Source of the DNA: Myxococcota bacterium | Lineage (GTDB): Bacteria > Myxococcota_A > UBA9160 > UBA4427 | Direction of reading: 5' to 3' | Length of the DNA stretch: 64,000 bases | NCBI GenBank assembly: GCA_965250285.1 | Contig: OZ252299.1 | Span: 4,704,001 to 4,768,000, forward strand | Shown here: one piece after another, positions 46,311 through 56,131 of the stretch | Numbering within the stretch: position 1 is the stretch's first letter | How the letters are laid out: every line of letters starts with the position of its first letter | Translations under genes and position numbers: made by a program | The notes under the pieces: generated by a model | What the model was told of the DNA's origin: nothing | Seen by the model: only the letters and a program-made list of their open reading frames with translations | Databases searched by the model: none

Positions 46311-46432
46311 GAGCCTGGGGGTGGCCTGGCTCGACCCGAGTCGAGCGGGCCTGAGATCACACCCTTGGAACCTGATCTCGTCCGTCGCAGCCCGTGATTT
46401 CGGTGCCGCGGCGGCGAGCGTAGGAAAGGCTC
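46311..46432 (+). ncRNA. TPP riboswitch (variant with extended P5)
   Basis: P1 GAGCCT/AGGCTC; GGGG..CTGAGA..ACCC..GAACCTGATC..GCGTAGGAA; upstream of thiC. Confidence 0.92.
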
Positions 46433-46563
46433 GGACCGGCGCTCCGTTTCGATCCGTTCGGGGGCCTCGTCGCTTGCGCGGTCTGCAGGCAACGAGTCGC
46501 CCGACGCACCCGACCGGTAGCCGCGCGCAGGCGCGATGCCACCGGCTCGACCGGAGGCGCCTC

Positions 46564-48372
46564 ATGGCAGACCACGACGACGCGATCCACCGCACCCTGC
46601 CCCGCGCATCGGCGAACCCCGCCACGCGCGAGCACGGCACCACGCCGGGCAGCTTTGCCAACACGCCCGCCATCGGCACGCCGATGACGTTCAGCTCACC
46701 CGATACGCCCGGCATGCCGGCCGCTTCCGAGAAGACGGCGTGGGATTTCATGCCCCCCGACTGGCGACAGATCGGCGACGAGTGGGTGCCGCCGGCCGGG
46801 TTCGAGCCCGTGACCCAGCTCGAGCACGCGCGCCTCGGCAAGATCACCCCCGAAATGCGGCGCGTGGCCGAGCGCGAGCCACACCTGACGCCCGAGCAGG
46901 TGCGCGACGAGGTGGCGGCCGGTCGCATGGTGATCCCGGCCAATCGCGTCCACCTCGGCTACCAGCTCGACCCGATGGCGATCGGACGCGCTTCGCTCAC
47001 CAAGATCAACGCCAACATGGGCGCTTCGCCGGTCTCGAGCGGAAGTGAAGAAGAGGTCGAAAAGCTGCGCTGGGCCGAGCGCTGGGGCGCCGACACGGTG
47101 ATGGACCTGTCGACCGGCGGCGACCTCGATTCGACGCGCAAGGCGATCATCCAGAACGCGAAGGTGCCCATCGGAACGGTACCGATCTACTCGATGATCA
47201 TCGGTCGCAAGATCGAGGATCTCGACGAAGAGACAGTGCTTCGGTGTCTGGAGCATCAAGCGCAACAGGGCGTCGACTACTTCACGATCCACGCCGGCGT
47301 TCGCCGCGCCCATCTGCCGCTCGTGCGCGATCGGCTGATCGGCATCGTGAGCCGCGGCGGCTCGCTGCTCGCGAAGTGGATGATCCACCACGAGCGCGAG
47401 AATCTGATGGCCACGCTCTGGGGCGAGATCTGCCAGGTGATGCGGCGTTACGACGTCACGTTCTCGATCGGCGACGGGCTCCGCCCCGGCGGCCTGGCCG
47501 ACGCCACCGACGCGGCACAGCTCGGCGAGCTCGAAGCACTCGGCGAGCTGACCGAGGAGGCCTGGCGCCACGGCGTGCAGGTGATGATCGAGGGGCCCGG
47601 CCACGTGCCCTTCGATCAGGTCGAATACAACATGAAGCTGCAGCGCCGGCTCTGTCACGGCGCTCCGTTCTACGTGCTCGGTCCGCTCGTCACCGACGTG
47701 TTCCCGGGCTACGACCACATCGCGAGCTCGATTGGCGCGACGGCGGCGGCGTATCACGGCGCGAGCATGCTCTGCTACGTGACGCCGAAGGAGCACCTCG
47801 GCCTGCCAAAGCGCGAAGACGTCAAGCAGGGCTGCATCGCGTACAAAATAGCCGCTCACTCGGCGGACATCGCGCTCGGCATCCCCGGCAGCCGCGACTG
47901 GGACGACGAGCTCACCAAGGCCCGAGCCGCGCTCAACTGGGAGAAGCACTTCGAGCTGGCCTTCGACAGCGACACGGCCCGCGCGTATCACGACGAAGAC
48001 CTCGACGTCGACACCGACTTCTGTGCGATGTGCGGGCACGACTGGTGCTCGGTGCGCATCAGCAAAGAGATCGTCGAGTTCACATCGGGCAAGTCGGAGG
48101 AGTACGCGTGGGAGAAGCCGAAGGTCAGCGACGCACTCACCGAAGAGCAGAAGCGCATCCTGGAGCAGCGGGGTGTGCTGTCGCCTCAGGAGATCCATCG
48201 CCTGGCGTCGAAGACGCGCCAGGGCGTGGGCGCGAGCGAGGGCATGGCCGACTGCCACAGTGACGTGGCCTCGCGCGAGCTCGCCGAAGAGATCCAGCAT
48301 GAGCGGCTCGATCCCGCGACGCTCGAGCCGCTGGAGGGGTCGACGTCGGCCGGCTCACCCCAGATCGACTGA
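46564..48372 (+). CDS. thiC: Phosphomethylpyrimidine synthase
   Basis: KINANMG, GADTVMDLSTG, YFTIHAG, VSRGGS, GDGLRPG, EGPGHVP, CAMCGHDWC; GGAGG RBS. Confidence 0.97.
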   Translation: MADHDDAIHRTLPRASANPATREHGTTPGSFANTPAIGTPMTFSSPDTPGMPAASEKTAWDFMPPDWRQIGDEWVPPAGFEPVTQLEHARLGKITPEMRRVAEREPHLTPEQVRDEVAAGRMVIPANRVHLGYQLDPMAIGRASLTKINANMGASPVSSGSEEEVEKLRWAERWGADTVMDLSTGGDLDSTRKAIIQNAKVPIGTVPIYSMIIGRKIEDLDEETVLRCLEHQAQQGVDYFTIHAGVRRAHLPLVRDRLIGIVSRGGSLLAKWMIHHERENLMATLWGEICQVMRRYDVTFSIGDGLRPGGLADATDAAQLGELEALGELTEEAWRHGVQVMIEGPGHVPFDQVEYNMKLQRRLCHGAPFYVLGPLVTDVFPGYDHIASSIGATAAAYHGASMLCYVTPKEHLGLPKREDVKQGCIAYKIAAHSADIALGIPGSRDWDDELTKARAALNWEKHFELAFDSDTARAYHDEDLDVDTDFCAMCGHDWCSVRISKEIVEFTSGKSEEYAWEKPKVSDALTEEQKRILEQRGVLSPQEIHRLASKTRQGVGASEGMADCHSDVASRELAEEIQHERLDPATLEPLEGSTSAGSPQID

Positions 48373-48414
48373 AGCCGCTCGTTTTCGGGCTCTTTCACAC
48401 TTCGAAGCGCTACC

Positions 48415-48453
48415 AAAAACGAAACGCCCCGGGATGCGAACATCCCGGGGCGT
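48415..48453 (-). terminator. Rho-independent terminator
   Basis: 13-bp perfect stem ACGCCCCGGGATG, UUCG loop and TTCGTTTTT tail on the minus strand. Confidence 0.85.
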
Positions 48454-48496
48454 CGCTCGGAGCCTTACCCCCCCGGTTGGGCTCCGAAATCATGTG
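48415..48496 (-). ncRNA. Candidate small RNA (two hairpins)
   Basis: Sigma-28-like promoter upstream; 8-bp stem with G7 loop; intrinsic terminator. Confidence 0.55.
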
Positions 48497-48502
48497 TTGA
48501 AT

Positions 48503-48529
48503 GGATCGGCTTGTGCGGCGGGAACTTGA
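48503..48529 (-). promoter_or_regulatory. Sigma-28 (FliA/WhiG)-like promoter
   Basis: TCAA-N15-GCCGATCC. Confidence 0.55.
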
Positions 48530-48613
48530 GTCGCAAAATGCGCTGAACCTGCAGAAAAGTTGCGGCATGGTGACCGCCATCAAAGCCTGCACCCCCGGGG
48601 AGGCCAGCTGCTC

Positions 48614-49081
48614 GTGACCGAGACCCTGCGCTTTCTCAGCGTGCTGATCGCGGGTGGCTGGTTCGGAGCGATGATCCTCTTCGCGTTCGTCGTCGCCCCG
48701 ACGGCGTTCGGCGTCCTGCCCGGGGCCGAGGTGGCCGGGTCTCTGGTGGGTCCGGTGCTGCGTGCAATCCACCTGTTCGGGATCGCCGCCGGCGTCGTGC
48801 TCGCCGCCTGCGCCTGGCAGCTCGACCGCGCCCGCTGGCTGCGCTTCTTCCCACTCGTGCTCGCCGCGGCGAGCGCCTACTCGGAGTTCGTCGTCACGGG
48901 AGAGATCTCGGGCCTGCTCCCGCACGACGCCGAGGCTGGGCGCACACCCGATCAGGCGGCCCGCTTCGCCTTTCTTCACCAGCTCTCGATGGTGATCTTC
49001 ACCGGGGTCGGACTGGGGGCCGCGGCCCTCGTCTTCGGCCACGTGTGGGCAGATCGAACCGGGAGCGGGCGCTGGGGCTGA
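48614..49081 (+). CDS. DUF4149-like membrane protein
   Basis: WFGAMILFAFVVAPTAF, AGSLVG, FAFLHQLS; GGGGAGG RBS. Confidence 0.8.
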   Translation: MTETLRFLSVLIAGGWFGAMILFAFVVAPTAFGVLPGAEVAGSLVGPVLRAIHLFGIAAGVVLAACAWQLDRARWLRFFPLVLAAASAYSEFVVTGEISGLLPHDAEAGRTPDQAARFAFLHQLSMVIFTGVGLGAAALVFGHVWADRTGSGRWG

Positions 49082-49533: not shown

Positions 49534-49737
49534 ATGGACACCAGGATCAAGCTCTCGCTCGAGTTCAGCGTCTCCGAGAGCGCGCTCGAAGATGCGATGG
49601 CAGAGTACGACGAGCTGACCGTCGAGGGCCTGCTGAGCGAGCTCCTCGACAAGGCGATCGCCTGCGACGAGATCACGACCAAGGTCGTCGAGGGTCCGAA
49701 CACCCTCGAAGAGCTCGACGCCCAGAAGGCCTCCTGA
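49534..49737 (+). CDS. 67-aa acidic hypothetical protein
   Basis: MDTRIKLSLEFSVSES..; GGAGG RBS; strong codon bias. Confidence 0.8.
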   Translation: MDTRIKLSLEFSVSESALEDAMAEYDELTVEGLLSELLDKAIACDEITTKVVEGPNTLEELDAQKAS

Positions 49738-49905: not shown

Positions 49906-50484
49906 TCAGACGAAGAGATCGAGCTGCACCGCCGCGGGTCGCACCGGGGCGGCCTGTGGACGCACCCGCGGGCTGCGAAGCGACGCCGGCCGAGACGCGG
50001 GCGAGGCGGACTCAGCGAAGAGCGGCAGCTCCGGGTTCGCCGGCACCGGTGTCTTCGTGGCATGGGCCGGGGGGGCGCGGCGCTCGGGCGGGCGTGAAGG
50101 ACGGGTGCCCGGATCGGGCCGATCACGGCGCATCGTCTCGCGAGGCCGACCGACCGGCCCGGGGCAGTAGATCCCTTCGCGGCGAGCCCACTCGAGCAGC
50201 TGAGCGTAGAACGCCTTGAAGTGCGGACCGTGGTTGAAGTGCTTCAGGTGCGCGAGTTCGTGACAGAGCGTGTTTACGAGGCTCGAGTACTTGAGCGGCT
50301 CGCCGGTGGCCACGTGCCGCAAGCGAATCTTGATGCTTCCGTCGTCGTAGCAGATTCCGTAGCGCCGCTTGACGTTGGCGCGCTCGGGCTCGAGCGATCG
50401 GTAGCGCAGACCGAAGCGATGGCAGATGCGATCAGCGTCGCTGCGCAGCCGGCGCATCAGCTCGTTCTGGGTGCGGCGGTTCAT
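49906..50484 (-). CDS. WLM/Wss1- or YgjP-like zinc metalloprotease with C-terminal beta-clamp motif
   Basis: YGICY..IKIRLR..TLCHELAHLKHFNHGPHF; disordered tail ending QLDLFV. Confidence 0.85.
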   Translation of the reverse strand: MNRRTQNELMRRLRSDADRICHRFGLRYRSLEPERANVKRRYGICYDDGSIKIRLRHVATGEPLKYSSLVNTLCHELAHLKHFNHGPHFKAFYAQLLEWARREGIYCPGPVGRPRETMRRDRPDPGTRPSRPPERRAPPAHATKTPVPANPELPLFAESASPASRPASLRSPRVRPQAAPVRPAAVQLDLFV

Positions 50485-50613
50485 GACCTGGCCGAGTGTC
50501 GAGGCGTGCCGCGCCAACGTCAAGCCGCGCGACGCGCAGCCACCGCCCGAAGGCCCTCGCGCTGCGGCCCTGATACGGGGCACGAGCGAGCGTGATCGCT
50601 ACCTTTCGGGGGC

Positions 50614-51288
50614 ATGTCGAGTGAACCCGACGAGATCCCGCTGTTCCCGCTCCCCTCGGTGGTGCTGTTCCCGCTGGCCACGGTGCCGCTCTTCGTCTTC
50701 GAGCCGCGATACAGGCAGATGATCGCGGCCGTGCTCGAGCAAACGCCGAGCCGCATCGGGATCGTCTCGGTGCCCGAAGCACACCACGAAGAGATGGCGG
50801 GGGATCCCCCGATCGAGGAAGTGGGCTGCGAAGGCGAGGTCGCTGCCGCCGAGCGAAACCCCGACGGTACCTACCGTATCCTGCTTCGCGGCACGCGGCG
50901 ATTTCGCATCGTGAACGAGCAGCGGCCCGAAGGCGATCGACTCTACCGCCTCGCGCAGATCGAGCCGCGCGCCGAGATCGTCGAAGACGGGGACCGTGAC
51001 GCAATGCGTGCCGGCCGTGGCGAGCTGCTCACGCTGCTATCGGACTTGTTGCAGCGCACGTCGCCGCGGCACGCGAGCGCTTTCGATCGAAGCCGCTTCG
51101 ACGAAGTCGGTGATGAACAGCTGGTCAACGCACTCGCGCAGGCGGTCGATCTCGAGGCTCATGACAAGCAACAGCTGCTCGAGGTCGATCGGGTGTGCAC
51201 ACGGCAACACATGCTTTCCGAGCTGTTGAGGTTTCGAATCGCGCAGCTCGAAGGCGGAGGCAGCGCCGGACCGACCACGCTTCAGTGA
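50614..51288 (+). CDS. Stand-alone Lon N-terminal substrate-binding domain protein
   Basis: IPLFPLPSVVLFP..PLFVFEPRYRQMI, DGTYRILLRGTRRFRI, KQQLLE. Confidence 0.92.
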   Translation: MSSEPDEIPLFPLPSVVLFPLATVPLFVFEPRYRQMIAAVLEQTPSRIGIVSVPEAHHEEMAGDPPIEEVGCEGEVAAAERNPDGTYRILLRGTRRFRIVNEQRPEGDRLYRLAQIEPRAEIVEDGDRDAMRAGRGELLTLLSDLLQRTSPRHASAFDRSRFDEVGDEQLVNALAQAVDLEAHDKQQLLEVDRVCTRQHMLSELLRFRIAQLEGGGSAGPTTLQ

Positions 51289-51564
51289 ATCGATTCGGCT
51301 GCTTCAGCAGATGCCGAAAATCGACGCAAAAAGTATCCTGATCGATTTTGATTGAGATCGAGTGCGAAGCGGACTTTCCCCCTCGACACACGATCGCAAC
51401 GTCGAAGGCACCTGAACGGCGCGCGCAAACTCCGCATCGCATCATCGGAAAATGAAAAGCAAACAGCGGTTCTAGGCGACCCCGAACGCCATTTGACAGC
51501 TCTTCGCGCGGTTCACCGGTCGGTCACGATCTATGCATTTCGACTTTGCGAAGAGCGCATCGGG

Positions 51565-51573
51565 TGTGGAATA
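51565..51573. promoter_or_regulatory. Single relaxed DnaA box
   Basis: TGTGGAATA, one mismatch to TGTGNAWAA, upstream of the dnaA-like gene. Confidence 0.35.
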
Positions 51574-51785
51574 TTACGTCCGTTCGAGGGCGGAACCGGA
51601 TCAAGAACGCTGGGATCATCCGGAACCGCCCAGAATCCCCCGAAAACGGCTTCCTCTTCCGAAAAACCGAGGATGAGCCGAGAGTGAAGTGAGAGGCACT
51701 CTCGGAAAAGAAGCCCCTAGATTCAACCGCGATGCGGGCTCTGCCGCAGTCGTCACGGAACCCGTCCGTCGCGGTTTGGGACACC

Positions 51786-53414
51786 ATGACCTTCCCCCCC
51801 AAGGTCTGGAGCGGTGTGCTGCGCCGACTCCAAGAAGAGCTACCTGCGTTCGCATTCGATGCGTGGATCGCCCCGCTTGCCCTGGGCGAGACGCGAAACG
51901 AACACGTCGTTCTGCTCTGCCCGACCTCCTTTCATCGTGATCGCGTTCGCAAGACGCTGCGCTCGCTCATCACCGCGGCCTTCGCCGACGAGCTCGGCCG
52001 GCCTGCGAGCGTCGAGTTCGACATCGGACGTGGCGGGATCGCGGCCGCTTCCCTCATCGACTCGCCCGCTGAATCGCAGGCGGTCGAAGCGCCCCGGGTC
52101 GCCCGAGCGCAGGCGGCTGCGGCCGAGGCGCCTCGTCGAGCGCCGGTGAAGCGGGTGCGCCCGGAGACCGAGGCTCGACGTGCGGTCGGCGCGGGCCCCC
52201 TCGCGCAGATGCTCCAGACCACGACGCAGGGCCTGCGGATCCAGCAGGCCCCCAGCGCGCCGCCCCGACCCCCGACCGAGTCGCGTGCCGAACTGCGAAC
52301 GGGTTCGCCCATCGCGCCCGGTCAGCGCGTGAACGACGGTCCGCCGCGACGGCCACAAGCGCGGCAGGCGCCAGCCGAAGCTCAGCCCGGGCTCCCCTAT
52401 TCGTTCGACAACTTCGTCGTCGGTCCCTGCAACGCCCTCGCCCGCGAGGCGGCGTTCGCCGTGGCGGGCGGCCAGGCCATGCCGCTGAAGCAGCTCTACC
52501 TCGCTTCGCCGCCGGGCCTCGGCAAGACCCATCTCGCCCGCGCCGTGGCGCTCGAGGTCGCGCGACACAACGATCGCCCCGTGCGCTACGCCAGCGCCGA
52601 GCTCTTCACGAGCGAGTTCGTCTCGGCCCTCCGCAACAAGACGACCGCCGAGTTCAAGCGGCGCTACCGGCCCGAACGGGGCGGCCTGCTGGTGCTCGAG
52701 GACGTGCAGTTCCTCGCGGCCAAGAAGGCGACGCAGCTCGAGTTCTTCCACAGCGTCGAGCACGTGCTCGAAGCCGGGGGCCGAGTGCTGCTCACCGGCG
52801 ACCGCATGCCGCAGGACATGGGCGACCTCGACGAGCGGCTCCGCGCGCAGCTCGGCCGGGGCTTCGTCGCGGGACTCGAGGCGCCCGACGCCCACGTCCG
52901 TCGGCAGATCCTCAAGGTCAAGGCGGCGCACGGCGCCATTGCGCTGCCCGACGAATGCCTCGACCTGCTGGTCGAATCGGTGGCGGGCAACGTCCGCGAG
53001 CTCGAAGGCGTATTGATGCAGGTGGTCACCACCTCGACGCTGCTCAAGCGACCGATCGATCTCGATCTGACGAAGCGCGCGATCCAGCAGAAGATGCAGG
53101 TGGTGGCGCCACAGGCGAAGCGCCCCGAGGTCGGCGACGTGCTCGCGGTGGTCGCCTCGTTCTTCAAGACGACACCCGAGCAGCTCGCGGCCCGCAGCCG
53201 GCGGCGCGCCGTTCTCGTCCCCCGGCAGCTGGCGATGTACCTCTGCCACCGTCACACCGACGCGCCGCTCGCCGACATCGGACGCGCCCTCGACCGGGAT
53301 CACCCCGCCGTGCGCAATGCGATCAAGAAGGTCGAGCGCGAGATGCTCGAGAATCCGCGCACGCGCTACCAGATCGAGGCCCTGACCACCCGGATTCTGG
53401 AGCGCACGAACTGA
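51786..53414 (+). CDS. dnaA: DnaA-family protein (divergent paralogue)
   Basis: Domain I FDAWIAPL; YSFDNFVVGPCN, GLGKTHL, EDVQFL, NVRELEG; domain IV RQLAMYL..RDH. Confidence 0.9.
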   Translation: MTFPPKVWSGVLRRLQEELPAFAFDAWIAPLALGETRNEHVVLLCPTSFHRDRVRKTLRSLITAAFADELGRPASVEFDIGRGGIAAASLIDSPAESQAVEAPRVARAQAAAAEAPRRAPVKRVRPETEARRAVGAGPLAQMLQTTTQGLRIQQAPSAPPRPPTESRAELRTGSPIAPGQRVNDGPPRRPQARQAPAEAQPGLPYSFDNFVVGPCNALAREAAFAVAGGQAMPLKQLYLASPPGLGKTHLARAVALEVARHNDRPVRYASAELFTSEFVSALRNKTTAEFKRRYRPERGGLLVLEDVQFLAAKKATQLEFFHSVEHVLEAGGRVLLTGDRMPQDMGDLDERLRAQLGRGFVAGLEAPDAHVRRQILKVKAAHGAIALPDECLDLLVESVAGNVRELEGVLMQVVTTSTLLKRPIDLDLTKRAIQQKMQVVAPQAKRPEVGDVLAVVASFFKTTPEQLAARSRRRAVLVPRQLAMYLCHRHTDAPLADIGRALDRDHPAVRNAIKKVEREMLENPRTRYQIEALTTRILERTN

Positions 53415-53486: not shown

Positions 53487-54731
53487 TCAGCCGCCGCTCG
53501 CGACCTCGCGTCGATGCAGTGGGCCATCGCGCCAGCGCGCGGGCCCCGAGAGCTCGACGCTGCGGGTCGGCTCGAGCGAGGGCGGGTCTTCGGACGGGTC
53601 ATCGAACCGGCGCAGGATCTTGTAGGTCGTCGATCGTTCGACCGGCACGCGCTCGATCTCGCGAATCAGCCGGCGGAACTCTTCGGGCGGGCAATTCTCA
53701 CCGTGCTGGCTGCCCGACTCTCGACTGATCGACTCTTCCATCAGCGTGCCGCCGAAGTCGTCGGCGCCCGCCTGCAGCGCCATCTGCCCCAGCTTCGGTC
53801 CCATCTTCACCCACGAGACCTGGATATGGTCGATCGTTCCGTGGAAGAAGAGCCGGCTGACGGCCACCATGCGCAGGTCTTCCATCATCGAAGCGCCCGG
53901 CCGGCTGCCCATGAAGTTGTAGAGCATGTTGCGCTCGTGGATGAAGCCGAGAGGGACGAACTCGGTGAACCCGCCCGTCTCCTTCTGCAGATCGCGCACG
54001 ATGCCCATGTGGGTCGCGATGTGGTGGGGCTGCTCGATGTGCCCGTACATCACGGTCGACGTCGAGCGCAGCCCGGCGCCGTGCGCCGCCTTGACGATCT
54101 CGACCCAGCGATCGGTCTTCAGCTTGTTCGGCGAGAGCACATCTCGCACCTCGTCGACGAGAATCTCGGCCGCGGTGCCGGGGACGGTGCCGAGGCCGGC
54201 GTCCTTCAGCCATGCCAGGTACTCGTCGAGCTTCATCCCGCTCTTGCGGTGACCGAAGTCGATCTCTTCGGGCGAGTATGCGTGGATGTGCAGGTCGGGA
54301 TAGGCGCCCTTGATCGTCGTCAGGATCTCGCGGTAGTGCTCGTGGGTCTTGTTCGGATGGATGCCACCCTGGATGCAGACCTCGGTCGCCCCGCGCGCAA
54401 TGGCGTCCTCGCACTTGGCGAGAATCACGTCCATCGAGTGATCGAACGACTCTTCGGCGTCGTCCTTGTGGCGCGCGAAGCCGCAGAACGAGCAGCCCAC
54501 GTAGCAGACGTTCGTGAAGTTGATGTTGCGGCACACGACGAAGGTCACGTCGTCGCCCTGCACGACGCGCCGCTGGTGGTCGGCGGCCGCGAGCAACGCG
54601 TGGAAGTCGGGGCCCTTCACGGTCAGCAGGCGTTCGAGCTCGCCGGTCGACATCTCGCGGCCCTCGAGCGAGCGCTCGAGAATGCCGGCGACCTCCGGCG
54701 TGACGGTGCCCAGGATCGATTCGAGACTCAT
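53487..54731 (-). CDS. cofH: FO synthase subunit CofH
   Basis: RNINFTNVCYVGCSFC, TEVCIQGGIHP, PGTAAEIL, TGGFTEFVPL, QVSWVKMG, GGTLMEESISR. Confidence 0.93.
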   Translation of the reverse strand: MSLESILGTVTPEVAGILERSLEGREMSTGELERLLTVKGPDFHALLAAADHQRRVVQGDDVTFVVCRNINFTNVCYVGCSFCGFARHKDDAEESFDHSMDVILAKCEDAIARGATEVCIQGGIHPNKTHEHYREILTTIKGAYPDLHIHAYSPEEIDFGHRKSGMKLDEYLAWLKDAGLGTVPGTAAEILVDEVRDVLSPNKLKTDRWVEIVKAAHGAGLRSTSTVMYGHIEQPHHIATHMGIVRDLQKETGGFTEFVPLGFIHERNMLYNFMGSRPGASMMEDLRMVAVSRLFFHGTIDHIQVSWVKMGPKLGQMALQAGADDFGGTLMEESISRESGSQHGENCPPEEFRRLIREIERVPVERSTTYKILRRFDDPSEDPPSLEPTRSVELSGPARWRDGPLHRREVASGG

Positions 54732-55984
54732 GCGGCTTCCTCCCCGGATGGGGTGTCGGGGCGCTTGGCGAAGCCTTCCGCGTCGAAGAAGCGGGGCATG
54801 GCTTCACGCATCCGAGGATCGTAGAACGCGCTGCGGTCGGGCGTCACCCGGTCGGCGCCGCCCAGCACCCAGTCGGGATAGATCGGGCCGCGGTCGCGCA
54901 GCTCGAGGCCGGCCGCTCGGGTGACCTCGCGCAACAGCGGCAGCGTCGGCCAGGGCGCTTCGGGGTTGATGTAGTCGAGGGTGACCGGCGAGACGCCGCC
55001 CCAGTCGTTGATGCCGGCGCGCAGCAGCTCGGGCAGCACCGTCTCGCCGAGGTTCGGCGGCGCCTGCACGTTCGCATCCGGGCCCATCACCAGCCGGGCG
55101 ATCGCCGTCCAGCCCACCACTTCTTCGTCGCTGAGCGGCGAGACATGCCGCATGCGCGTCCCCGGCTTCGGGTGGAACGGCTGCACGATCAGCTCCTGGA
55201 TGTGGCCGTACGCGTCGTCGATGCGGCGAATCTCTGCGAGGGTCGCCGCGCGCTCGGCGTCGTTCTCGCCGATCCCCATGAGCAGGCCGCTCGTGAACGG
55301 GATCTTCAGCTCGCCGGCCTCTTCGTGCATGCGAATGCGCCGGGCCGGCTCTTTGTCGGGGGCATACTGGTGGGGCATGCCCTTGCCCCGCAGACGCTGG
55401 CTCGTGGTCTCCATCATGAGACCCATCGAGGCATTCCAGGGCCGCAGCCGCTCCATCTCTTCGATCGTCAGGATGCCCGCGTTGGTGTGGGGCAGCATGC
55501 CGCCCTCGAACGCGACGCGACACGCCTCGACGAGCAGATCCGTCGTCGACGCGTAGCCATCCCCCGCGAGCTGCTCGCGATAGCTGCGATAGGCGACTTC
55601 CGGCTTGTCACCGAGGCACATCAGGGCCTCGGTGCAGCCGGTCAGCACGCCGCCGCGTACGACCTCGGCCACCTCGTCGAGGCTGTAGGTGTGGGCTTCG
55701 GCGCTGTCGGGCAGCTTCGCAAAGGTGCAGTAGCTGCAGCGGTTGCGGCAGAGATTCGTGAGTGGAATGAAGACGTTGCGTGAGACCGTGACGACCGAGC
55801 CGCGTCCCTTGCGCGCGCTCTCCCAGGCGGCCTCGACGAGCGGGCGGCGCACCCGCTCATCGCCGACTCGAGCACCGAGGCGCTCGGCCTCGGGCGCTTC
55901 GAGACGGCCCGACGCGAGGGCGTCGTCGAGGATCGATCGAATGTCGTCGTCGCCGAGGGGACGGTCGTCGGAGGGAGCGCTCAC
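54728..55984 (-). CDS. cofG: FO synthase subunit CofG
   Basis: SRNVFIPLTNLCRNRCSYC, LPHTNAG, HIQELIVQPF, QAPPNL, DWGGVSPVT.DYINPEAPWP. Confidence 0.93.
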   Translation of the reverse strand: MSAPSDDRPLGDDDIRSILDDALASGRLEAPEAERLGARVGDERVRRPLVEAAWESARKGRGSVVTVSRNVFIPLTNLCRNRCSYCTFAKLPDSAEAHTYSLDEVAEVVRGGVLTGCTEALMCLGDKPEVAYRSYREQLAGDGYASTTDLLVEACRVAFEGGMLPHTNAGILTIEEMERLRPWNASMGLMMETTSQRLRGKGMPHQYAPDKEPARRIRMHEEAGELKIPFTSGLLMGIGENDAERAATLAEIRRIDDAYGHIQELIVQPFHPKPGTRMRHVSPLSDEEVVGWTAIARLVMGPDANVQAPPNLGETVLPELLRAGINDWGGVSPVTLDYINPEAPWPTLPLLREVTRAAGLELRDRGPIYPDWVLGGADRVTPDRSAFYDPRMREAMPRFFDAEGFAKRPDTPSGEEAA

Positions 55985-56131
55985 GGGGGCCCTTCCCGGT
56001 GCAATACGGAGCCGGGCACGATAGCACGCGGGGGGACGCGCCCTCGGGTGATCGGTTGCGATGCCACGCGAATGATCCACTCGAGGGCTGCGATCGGGGC
56101 TCGATCTGCCGGTTGCTGGGGAGGGATTTCA

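Follow-up and report, generated by a model that had tools for sequence, protein, structure and literature searches.

The stretch of DNA analyzed here (the window, 64,000 nucleotides) corresponds to positions 4704001-4768000 of contig OZ252299.1 in the one-contig assembly GCA_965250285.1 of a Myxococcota bacterium (GTDB lineage Bacteria; Myxococcota_A; UBA9160; UBA4427), a genome of 6.25 Mb and 68.6% GC that is rated 95% complete and is called G000 below. Three adjacent open reading frames (ORFs) of the window are considered: wlm (49906..50484, reverse strand), for a predicted zinc metalloprotease of the Wss1 fold; lonN (50614..51288, forward strand), for a stand-alone Lon substrate-binding domain; and dnaA (51786..53414, forward strand), for a DnaA of 542 residues with a long Pro/Arg/Ala-rich domain II, orthologous to the second dnaA (dnaA2) of the sister order. 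An earlier note made from the sequence had described this arrangement, which the ORFs confirmed, and had read it as a module coupling proteolysis to the replisome or to initiation control, with DnaA present as a paralogue. We consider here what this dnaA is, where it probably acts, and whether its neighbors belong with it.

Searches of G000 with PF00308, PF08299 and tblastn each matched only the window gene, and a genome-wide search for a canonical DnaA or an Hda-like gene found neither. The window DnaA is the sole replication initiator of its genome, a point that the earlier note missed; as there is no second dnaA, no canonical DnaA was available for the pairwise complex prediction suggested there. 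Nearly all sampled genomes of the order likewise carry only DnaA of the window type. In the class sample, 147 of 151 genomes had a DnaA match and none except G010 scored above 375 bits; 81 of 82 genomes of the phylum outside the class matched, at 383-571 bits. The window protein missed the TIGR00362 equivalog cut-off (336.8 vs 343.9 bits), which 57 of the 151 class genomes pass, and all 61 relatives searched carry a TIGR00362 match. In the sister order (family f13), two or more DnaA matches were found in 23 of 23 genomes. The two canonical copies in G010 were rejected as contamination, because that assembly is rated 6% contaminated, the copies lie on other contigs and form a long branch among the outgroup, and the class-type dnaN of G010 itself has the new box described below.

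Domains I, III (AAA+) and IV (helix-turn-helix) are all present above cut-off (PF11638, PF00308 and PF08299), and the start at ATG 51786, taken from relatives, is likely. Residue numbers are those of E. coli or B. subtilis DnaA unless stated otherwise. They derive from alignment with these two proteins and from PMC5742627, PMC7561715 and PMC10721633, and for D235, T436, L438 and F46 partly from general background. Compared with B. subtilis DnaA, the window protein has ED for DD in Walker B, Gln for the arginine finger and DHPAVRN for DHTTVIH in the recognition helix, so that the altered residues reported in the earlier note hold up. The Walker A motif SPPGLGKT (52506..52529) retains its Lys in 81 of 81 order sequences, the first Gly being mostly replaced by Ser or Ala. 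The Walker B change (52698..52703; E305 of the window protein, D235E) occurs in 74 of 81 order sequences, the other 7 having Asp, and in 11 of 11 sister dnaA2 sequences and 0 of 31 outgroup sequences. Q355 (52848..52850) occupies the position of R285, the arginine finger, where the order has Gln in 52 sequences and Arg in only 16. The rest of the core is well kept across the order (n = 81): Walker A Lys/Thr in 81 (K178 in 81), sensor I Asp (D269) in 77, sensor II Arg (R334) in 80, box VII Arg (R281) in 79 and the domain I Phe in 71, and the equivalents of the trio-contacting residues E183, K222, T225 and E228 are invariant.

The DNA-reading residues have changed selectively. According to PMC5742627, the helix at residues 434-451 reads the 3′ part of the DnaA box and R399 its 5′ part. 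R472 of the window protein (53199..53201), the equivalent of R399 and a predicted minor-groove reader of the 5′ part, is invariant in all 81 order sequences. The window protein also keeps D433 and H434 (the latter in 79 of 81), and has P423A together with a recognition helix, RDHPAVRN (53295..53318), that carries T435P, T436A, L438R and H439N. These substitutions typify the order, with T435P in 68 sequences, Ala or Ser at T436 in all 81, H439N in 69 and P423 kept in 4. In the outgroup (n = 31), T436 is found in 30 sequences and T435 in 23, and positions 438 and 439 are variable.

The probable site of action of this DnaA lies outside the window. The dnaN gene is at contig 4,903,712-4,904,818, facing rpmH and ∼147 kb from the window dnaA; the two genes are 58-380 kb apart in genomes that have both on one contig, and dnaN falls inside the 1.5-kb flank of dnaA in 15 of 30 fetched outgroup loci. 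The dnaA-less gap between rpmH and dnaN (contig 4904819-4905457, 639 bp) is the predicted oriC. The GC-skew minimum, at 4,891,305, is 13.5 kb from this gap and 135 kb from dnaA, giving arms of ∼3.06 and 3.19 Mb. Gaps of 297-904 bp without dnaA separate rpmH and dnaN at 28 of 30 order loci and at 19 of 20 held-out loci. Within the gap of G000, three or more DnaA-trios are followed by an AT-rich stretch, as in a BUS-type oriC. No exact canonical DnaA box was found in any of the 50 rpmH-dnaN regions (30 plus 20 held-out), and a cluster of canonical boxes elsewhere in G000 was sought and rejected, there being just 10 scattered matches genome-wide.

In place of the canonical box, the 7-mers most enriched in the 30 gaps were TTTGTCG (34 occurrences vs 2.8 expected, in 20 of 30 gaps) and trio words, and the box that precedes the trios is TTYTGTCGG instead of TTATCCACA. 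In G000 the new box (4904880-4904888) has the trios next to it. The box starts ∼21 nt ahead of the trios with a spacer of ∼12 bp, which agrees with the published spacer peak of 10-13 bp (PMC8287927); the box-plus-trio pattern occurs once in G000, at 4,904,887. Among origins with a called trio run (none was called in 6 of 30 order, 2 of 9 sister and 5 of 15 outgroup origins, which the counts omit), a trio-anchored 9-mer within two mismatches of TTTTGTCGG was present in 21 of 24 order, 0 of 7 sister and 0 of 10 outgroup origins (background 3.7%), and one within two mismatches of TTATCCACA, 10-16 bp before the trios, in 0 of 24, 4 of 7 and 8 of 10, respectively. As the first 30 origins had supplied the motif, 20 further origins were tested, of which 14 passed the new-box test vs 1 of 20 upstream background windows. 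An inverted copy of the new box lies 42-43 bp upstream in ∼11 of 28 order origins, and an inverted canonical-like box lies 40 bp upstream in 5 of 8 sister origins. A strict box-plus-trio pattern was also run over 151 genomes and matched 45, a count that we discarded because a reversed control matched at a similar rate. The register of the new 9-mer is uncertain. In one family, represented by two genomes only (G056 and G039), H439 is kept and TT(A/G)TCGAC(A/G), nearer to the canonical 3′ end, lies ∼72 bp before dnaN.

The selective changes in protein and DNA correspond: the T-rich 5′ part of the box and R399 are kept, and the 3′ part and the helix are changed, the pattern expected from the roles assigned in PMC5742627. 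Together with the trios and the skew, it makes it likely that the window DnaA initiates at the predicted rpmH-dnaN origin 147 kb away by reading the changed box. We weighed two other accounts of these data. Replication might be DnaA-independent or start at another site, in which case DnaA would regulate transcription and the gap motif would be an operator of the dnaN promoter. Some cyanobacteria and endosymbionts are known to replicate without DnaA, the arginine finger and Walker B of the window-type protein are altered, and the motif, ∼70 bp before dnaN, stands at a plausible operator place. We nevertheless regard this account as very improbable, given that trios persist at canonical spacing, the skew minimum adjoins the gap, conservation extends to the trio-contacting residues, the domain I Phe and sensors I and II, and the gene is present in 147 of 151 genomes.

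Alternatively, the helix may no longer read double-stranded DNA, and another protein might bind TTYTGTCGG and recruit DnaA to the trios. One candidate is an acidic protein of 67 residues encoded at 49534..49737 (forward strand), which is ∼70% identical across the class, adjoins dnaA at all 59 loci with enough flank, and is the most constant neighbor of this dnaA; it is found in 39 of 39 class genomes and in 0 of 162 other genomes of the phylum. It had no Pfam family and no Foldseek match, and its Atlas matches were unnamed clusters only. Its model is weakly like ribbon-helix-helix proteins (best Z 3.0, root-mean-square deviation (rmsd) 2.6-3.6 over 40-42 residues), and complex prediction for DnaA with two copies of it scored 0.02 and gave no usable model. 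This account gains from the report that T435M abolishes box binding by E. coli DnaA, and from the possibility that the second copy in the sister order never required box reading. However, the 67-residue protein is strongly acidic and also occurs in the sister order, whose origins are without the new box; R399, R407 and H434 are retained, the new helix residues are themselves conserved, and Thermotoga DnaA likewise has Pro at the T435 position. We therefore consider recruitment through another protein unlikely, and direct reading of the new box by domain IV the better explanation.

The sister order indicates how such a system could have arisen. Twenty regions from 12 of its genomes fall into two kinds, nine with rpmH-dnaA-dnaN and 11 with small ORF-wlm-(lonN)-dnaA, and two more regions agree. 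The ancestral-site copy between rpmH and dnaN (n = 9) retains P423, H434, T435, T436, L438, H439 and R399 in 9 of 9 sequences, and its core has decayed, with D269 in 1, R281 in 1, R334 in 2 and the domain I Phe in 0. The second copy (n = 11) retains R285 in 11, R334 in 10, D269 in 9 and the Phe in 11, and has a changed helix (T436S in 11, H439Y in 10, P423 in 0). The ancestral-site protein thus combines a DNA-binding helix of canonical sequence with a decayed AAA+ core and a decayed domain I, and may be a DnaA that serves only as an anchor. In a quickly built tree of 68 sequences of domains III-IV, including 17 of the order's 81, the order DnaA joined the sister dnaA2 (SH-aLRT 100), and both class copies stood apart from the outgroup on long branches with a support of 89, or 87 in a 43-row tree that omits four long rows. 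Grouping of the order gene with the ancestral-site copy was weakly rejected (p-AU 0.046). From the first of these groupings, the window gene descends as a paralogue and is the only copy left in this order; the term used in the earlier note therefore holds for its ancestry, if not for its genome. Duplication is a more likely source of the second copy than transfer.

We propose the following history. The dnaA gene would have been duplicated in the ancestor of the class, the second copy settling in a block with the small ORF, wlm, lonN and cofH. The sister order would have retained both copies with complementary losses and near-canonical boxes: the ancestral-site copy keeping a canonical box-reading helix minus sensor I, sensor II, the box VII Arg and the domain I Phe, and the second copy keeping those residues with a changed helix. 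The order of the window would then have deleted the ancestral copy while its origin remained in place, and the helix would have changed in step with the 3′ half of the box as R399 and the T-rich 5′ half stayed. In the present system, domain IV would anchor on the new box, ATP-DnaA would polymerize along the trios, and the filament would open the AT-rich stretch before handing over to DnaB, likely with DciA.

Several points weigh against this proposal. The first 30 origins served to define the motif, and the anchored counts pass over the origins lacking a called trio run. Six of the 20 held-out origins fail the two-mismatch test (most of them having variants such as TTCTATCC or TTTCATCC at the matching place), and a canonical-like 9-mer within two mismatches lies in the last 200 nt of 5 of the 20. 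The gap of G000 has only two strong copies of the box, and the region upstream of dnaA shows no enrichment of exact TTTGTCG (1 vs 7.2 expected). A genome-by-genome comparison of helix and box gave no clear covariation mapping, and, the relatives not being independent, the changes in the helix and in the box together count as about a single evolutionary event. Variation in the outgroup makes positions 438 and 439 undiagnostic. Of the 81 order sequences, 65 lack the arginine finger, and no residue consistently compensates for it; the I190 position also varies. Long-branch attraction may be what joins the two class copies (87-89), and most of the compared genomes are fragmented assemblies. Taking these points into account, we assign a probability of roughly 0.7 to an order-wide replacement of the initiator through duplication, division of labor, loss of the ancestral copy and recoding of helix and box. 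A search of the open-access literature found no paper on UBA9160 and DnaA or on this case, with subscription papers and origin databases outside its scope, so that earlier notice of the box is possible.

Several known systems bear comparison. The order DnaA resembles that of the DnaA/BUS system of B. subtilis and other bacteria, as described in PMC8287927 and PMC10721633, in having domains I, III and IV, invariant equivalents of the trio-contacting E183, K222 and E228, and an origin with box, 10-13 bp spacer, trios and AT-rich stretch; it differs in the box TTYTGTCGG, the helix DHPAVxN, the finger that is mostly Gln, the Walker B ED and the distance between dnaA and dnaN. The DnaA of Thermotoga maritima (PDB 2z4r) also has Pro at the T435 position; unlike the order DnaA, it has a canonical arginine finger and Walker B in the alignment, and its box is different again. 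A divergent DnaA box is characteristic of T. maritima, and we know of no duplication-and-replacement history for its DnaA. Chlamydiae are an example of lineages with two DnaA proteins, and the sister order is like them in having two chromosomal dnaA genes; unlike in Chlamydiae, the two class copies have lost complementary sets of residues, and one order is back to a single, derived copy. We found no paper on a division of labor in two-DnaA lineages in the open-access literature.

The region upstream of dnaA (51289..51785, forward strand; 497 bp) is AT-rich for this genome. It contains a conserved CGACAC at 51384, an AAAC-N4-GGTT element at 51461-51480 that is conserved upstream of the dnaA promoter in order and sister loci, and predicted -35- and -10-like hexamers at ∼51545 and ∼51565; a sigma-70 scan upstream of dnaA found no site. 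Of 78 loci, 52 could be anchored, and 20 of these have CGACA at the same position, vs 0.24% per equal window elsewhere, and at the matching place the sister order has tandem canonical-like boxes in 8 of 10 loci. The AAAC-N4-GGTT element is usually followed by a CG(A/T)CG word, which is common to the sister order, and may be an operator.

The wlm product most likely starts at ATG 50484 (192 residues) rather than at GTG 50583, as relatives align from that Met. It comprises a basic core of 108 residues (isoelectric point 10.0), a Pro/Arg-rich linker and a clamp-type tail; the structure model is confident for residues 1-110 and of low confidence after them. The Wss1-like assignment of the earlier note was supported at the level of the predicted fold. 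The sequence HELAH (residues 75-79) and a third His (50230..50262; H75, E76, H79 and H85) are invariant in 34 aligned relatives, Pfam WLM matched at 39.4 bits (cut-off 26), and a YgjP-like (DUF45) match of 35.6 bits was incomplete, covering profile positions 109-195 of 207. The best Foldseek match was yeast Wss1 (E 2e-4), and the predicted fold fits Wss1 structures with Z scores of 16.0 (rmsd 1.8 over 105 residues) and 13.7, compared with 9.2 for the next unrelated fold, 8.5 for minigluzincins and 8.2 for SPRTN. Related genes occur in 34 of 39 class genomes, and the 162 others gave three weak partial matches. Short, tail-less WLM-like proteins, two distant ones among them on viral contigs, are a possible source of the class protease core. 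On the likely contaminant contig of G010 that carries a canonical dnaA, a distant HExxH-type match (32% identity) lies just downstream on the opposite strand.

The tail, also remarked on in the earlier note, contains QLDLF (49912..49926), the protein ending QLDLFV, one residue beyond a motif of the beta-clamp-binding type (consensus from PMC6511837). Of 73 complete relatives, 59 have a strict QLxLF within their final 12 residues, and the C-termini of neighboring proteins gave 0 of 73 (LonN), 0 of 82 (small ORF) and 0 of 99 (DnaA), which places the tail beyond chance. The conserved tail columns are the QLxLF residues themselves. The motif was present in 110 of the 120 matches listed, a set biased by the presence of the tail in the search profile; when the query was restricted to the core, the motif was found in 48 of the top 90 representatives, the most distant matches being mostly 95-135 residues long and tail-less. 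Five G000 ORFs end in such a motif, including Pol II, a PA0069 radical SAM protein and a Pol IV-like protein. The PA0069-family protein (contig 3247934-3249241) ends in QLELF and is another likely clamp partner. On the frequency of the motif among relatives, the protease probably binds the beta clamp. The SPRTN tail bears a PIP box, and that of Wss1 has SUMO- and Cdc48-binding motifs. The window protease is like yeast Wss1 (PDB 5xbn, 5ln5) and human SPRTN (6mdx) in its HExxH with third His, basic core and flexible tail with a sliding-clamp motif; it differs in being bacterial, 192 residues long, 18-25% identical, furnished with a beta-clamp-type motif, and known here from sequence and model. 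By analogy, it might cut proteins stuck on DNA at forks, with chances that we put a little short of even. Removal of DNA-protein crosslinks in bacteria has long been assigned to excision repair and recombination (PMC6219452); among bacterial proteases that might act on such lesions, a Wss1-type enzyme bound to the clamp would be a candidate.

LonN (224 residues) matches LON_substr_bdg over its full length and has neither an AAA+ nor a Ser-Lys protease domain, as the earlier note had recognized. In this it is like other stand-alone Lon N-domain proteins (PF02190 only), which are encoded by short ORFs in many genomes of the phylum, and it differs from them only by its position adjoining dnaA. 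Conserved with the block on its flanks are cofH/cofG-like radical SAM genes (53487-56080, reverse strand) and, at 46321-49081 (forward strand), a DUF4149 gene and a thiC-like gene. The module proposed in the earlier note, in which LonN would adapt Lon to DnaA and the clamp-bound protease would join in, had been made to depend on synteny beyond close relatives, and the neighborhood check found the block across the class, in both orders; loss of synteny therefore does not tell against it. Moreover, wlm is nearly class-specific, like dnaA2, and G000 has no Hda-like match and four full-length Lon genes (contig 145997, 1317869, 1988341 and 2013087), which leave room for proteolytic control and make a regulatory link possible, though unsupported. 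In two genomes of one family outside the class (G175 and G222), a stand-alone lonN lies 3.5-4.6 kb past a canonical dnaA; in another such family (G172, G182, G187, G192 and G211), a full Lon gene lies ∼6 kb from dnaA.

Against the module, linkage to dnaA, counted over those of 80 loci with enough flank, was 50 of 59 for wlm and 47 of 59 for lonN, no tighter than that of the F420 gene cofH (55 of 71). The two genes are lost separately: of 71 loci, 49 have both, 11 have wlm only, 7 have lonN only and 4 have neither (Fisher p 0.23), and 5 of 39 class genomes gave no wlm match. Stand-alone lonN is common elsewhere in the phylum, and 15 of 15 outgroup lonN loci have neither wlm nor dnaA within 1.5 kb. 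The dnaA gene has its own conserved promoter-like elements in the 497-bp gap, and wlm is on the other strand. Gene-order inertia accounts for the adjacency of wlm and lonN to dnaA, and we consider the three-gene module highly unlikely. LonN is most likely a bystander, and the protease is likely a separate, dispensable passenger, a clamp-tethered enzyme of the Wss1 type.

A broader synthesis is more tentative, and we think it somewhat more apt to fail than to hold: the class may have divided the work of DnaA between two specialists, one anchoring at the box and stripped of its ATPase-site and helicase-contact residues, the other forming filaments on the trios and loading the helicase, after which one order dropped the anchor and regained both jobs through a new origin code, largely without the arginine finger, at a locus that also houses a clamp-tethered Wss1-type protease in the role of SPRTN. 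If the replacement occurred as proposed, the order would be a natural experiment on initiation, the step of bacterial replication that is conserved most, in which initiator and origin could be recoded together in place. The intermediate would also be preserved, the pair in the sister order being two natural proteins for the anchor and filament roles of the BUS. The arginine finger is described as required by E. coli DnaA to form ATP-DnaA oligomers and by B. subtilis DnaA to unwind DNA; a sole DnaA without it would challenge a residue held to be essential in both. Finally, the new box would make the origins of this uncultured order predictable.

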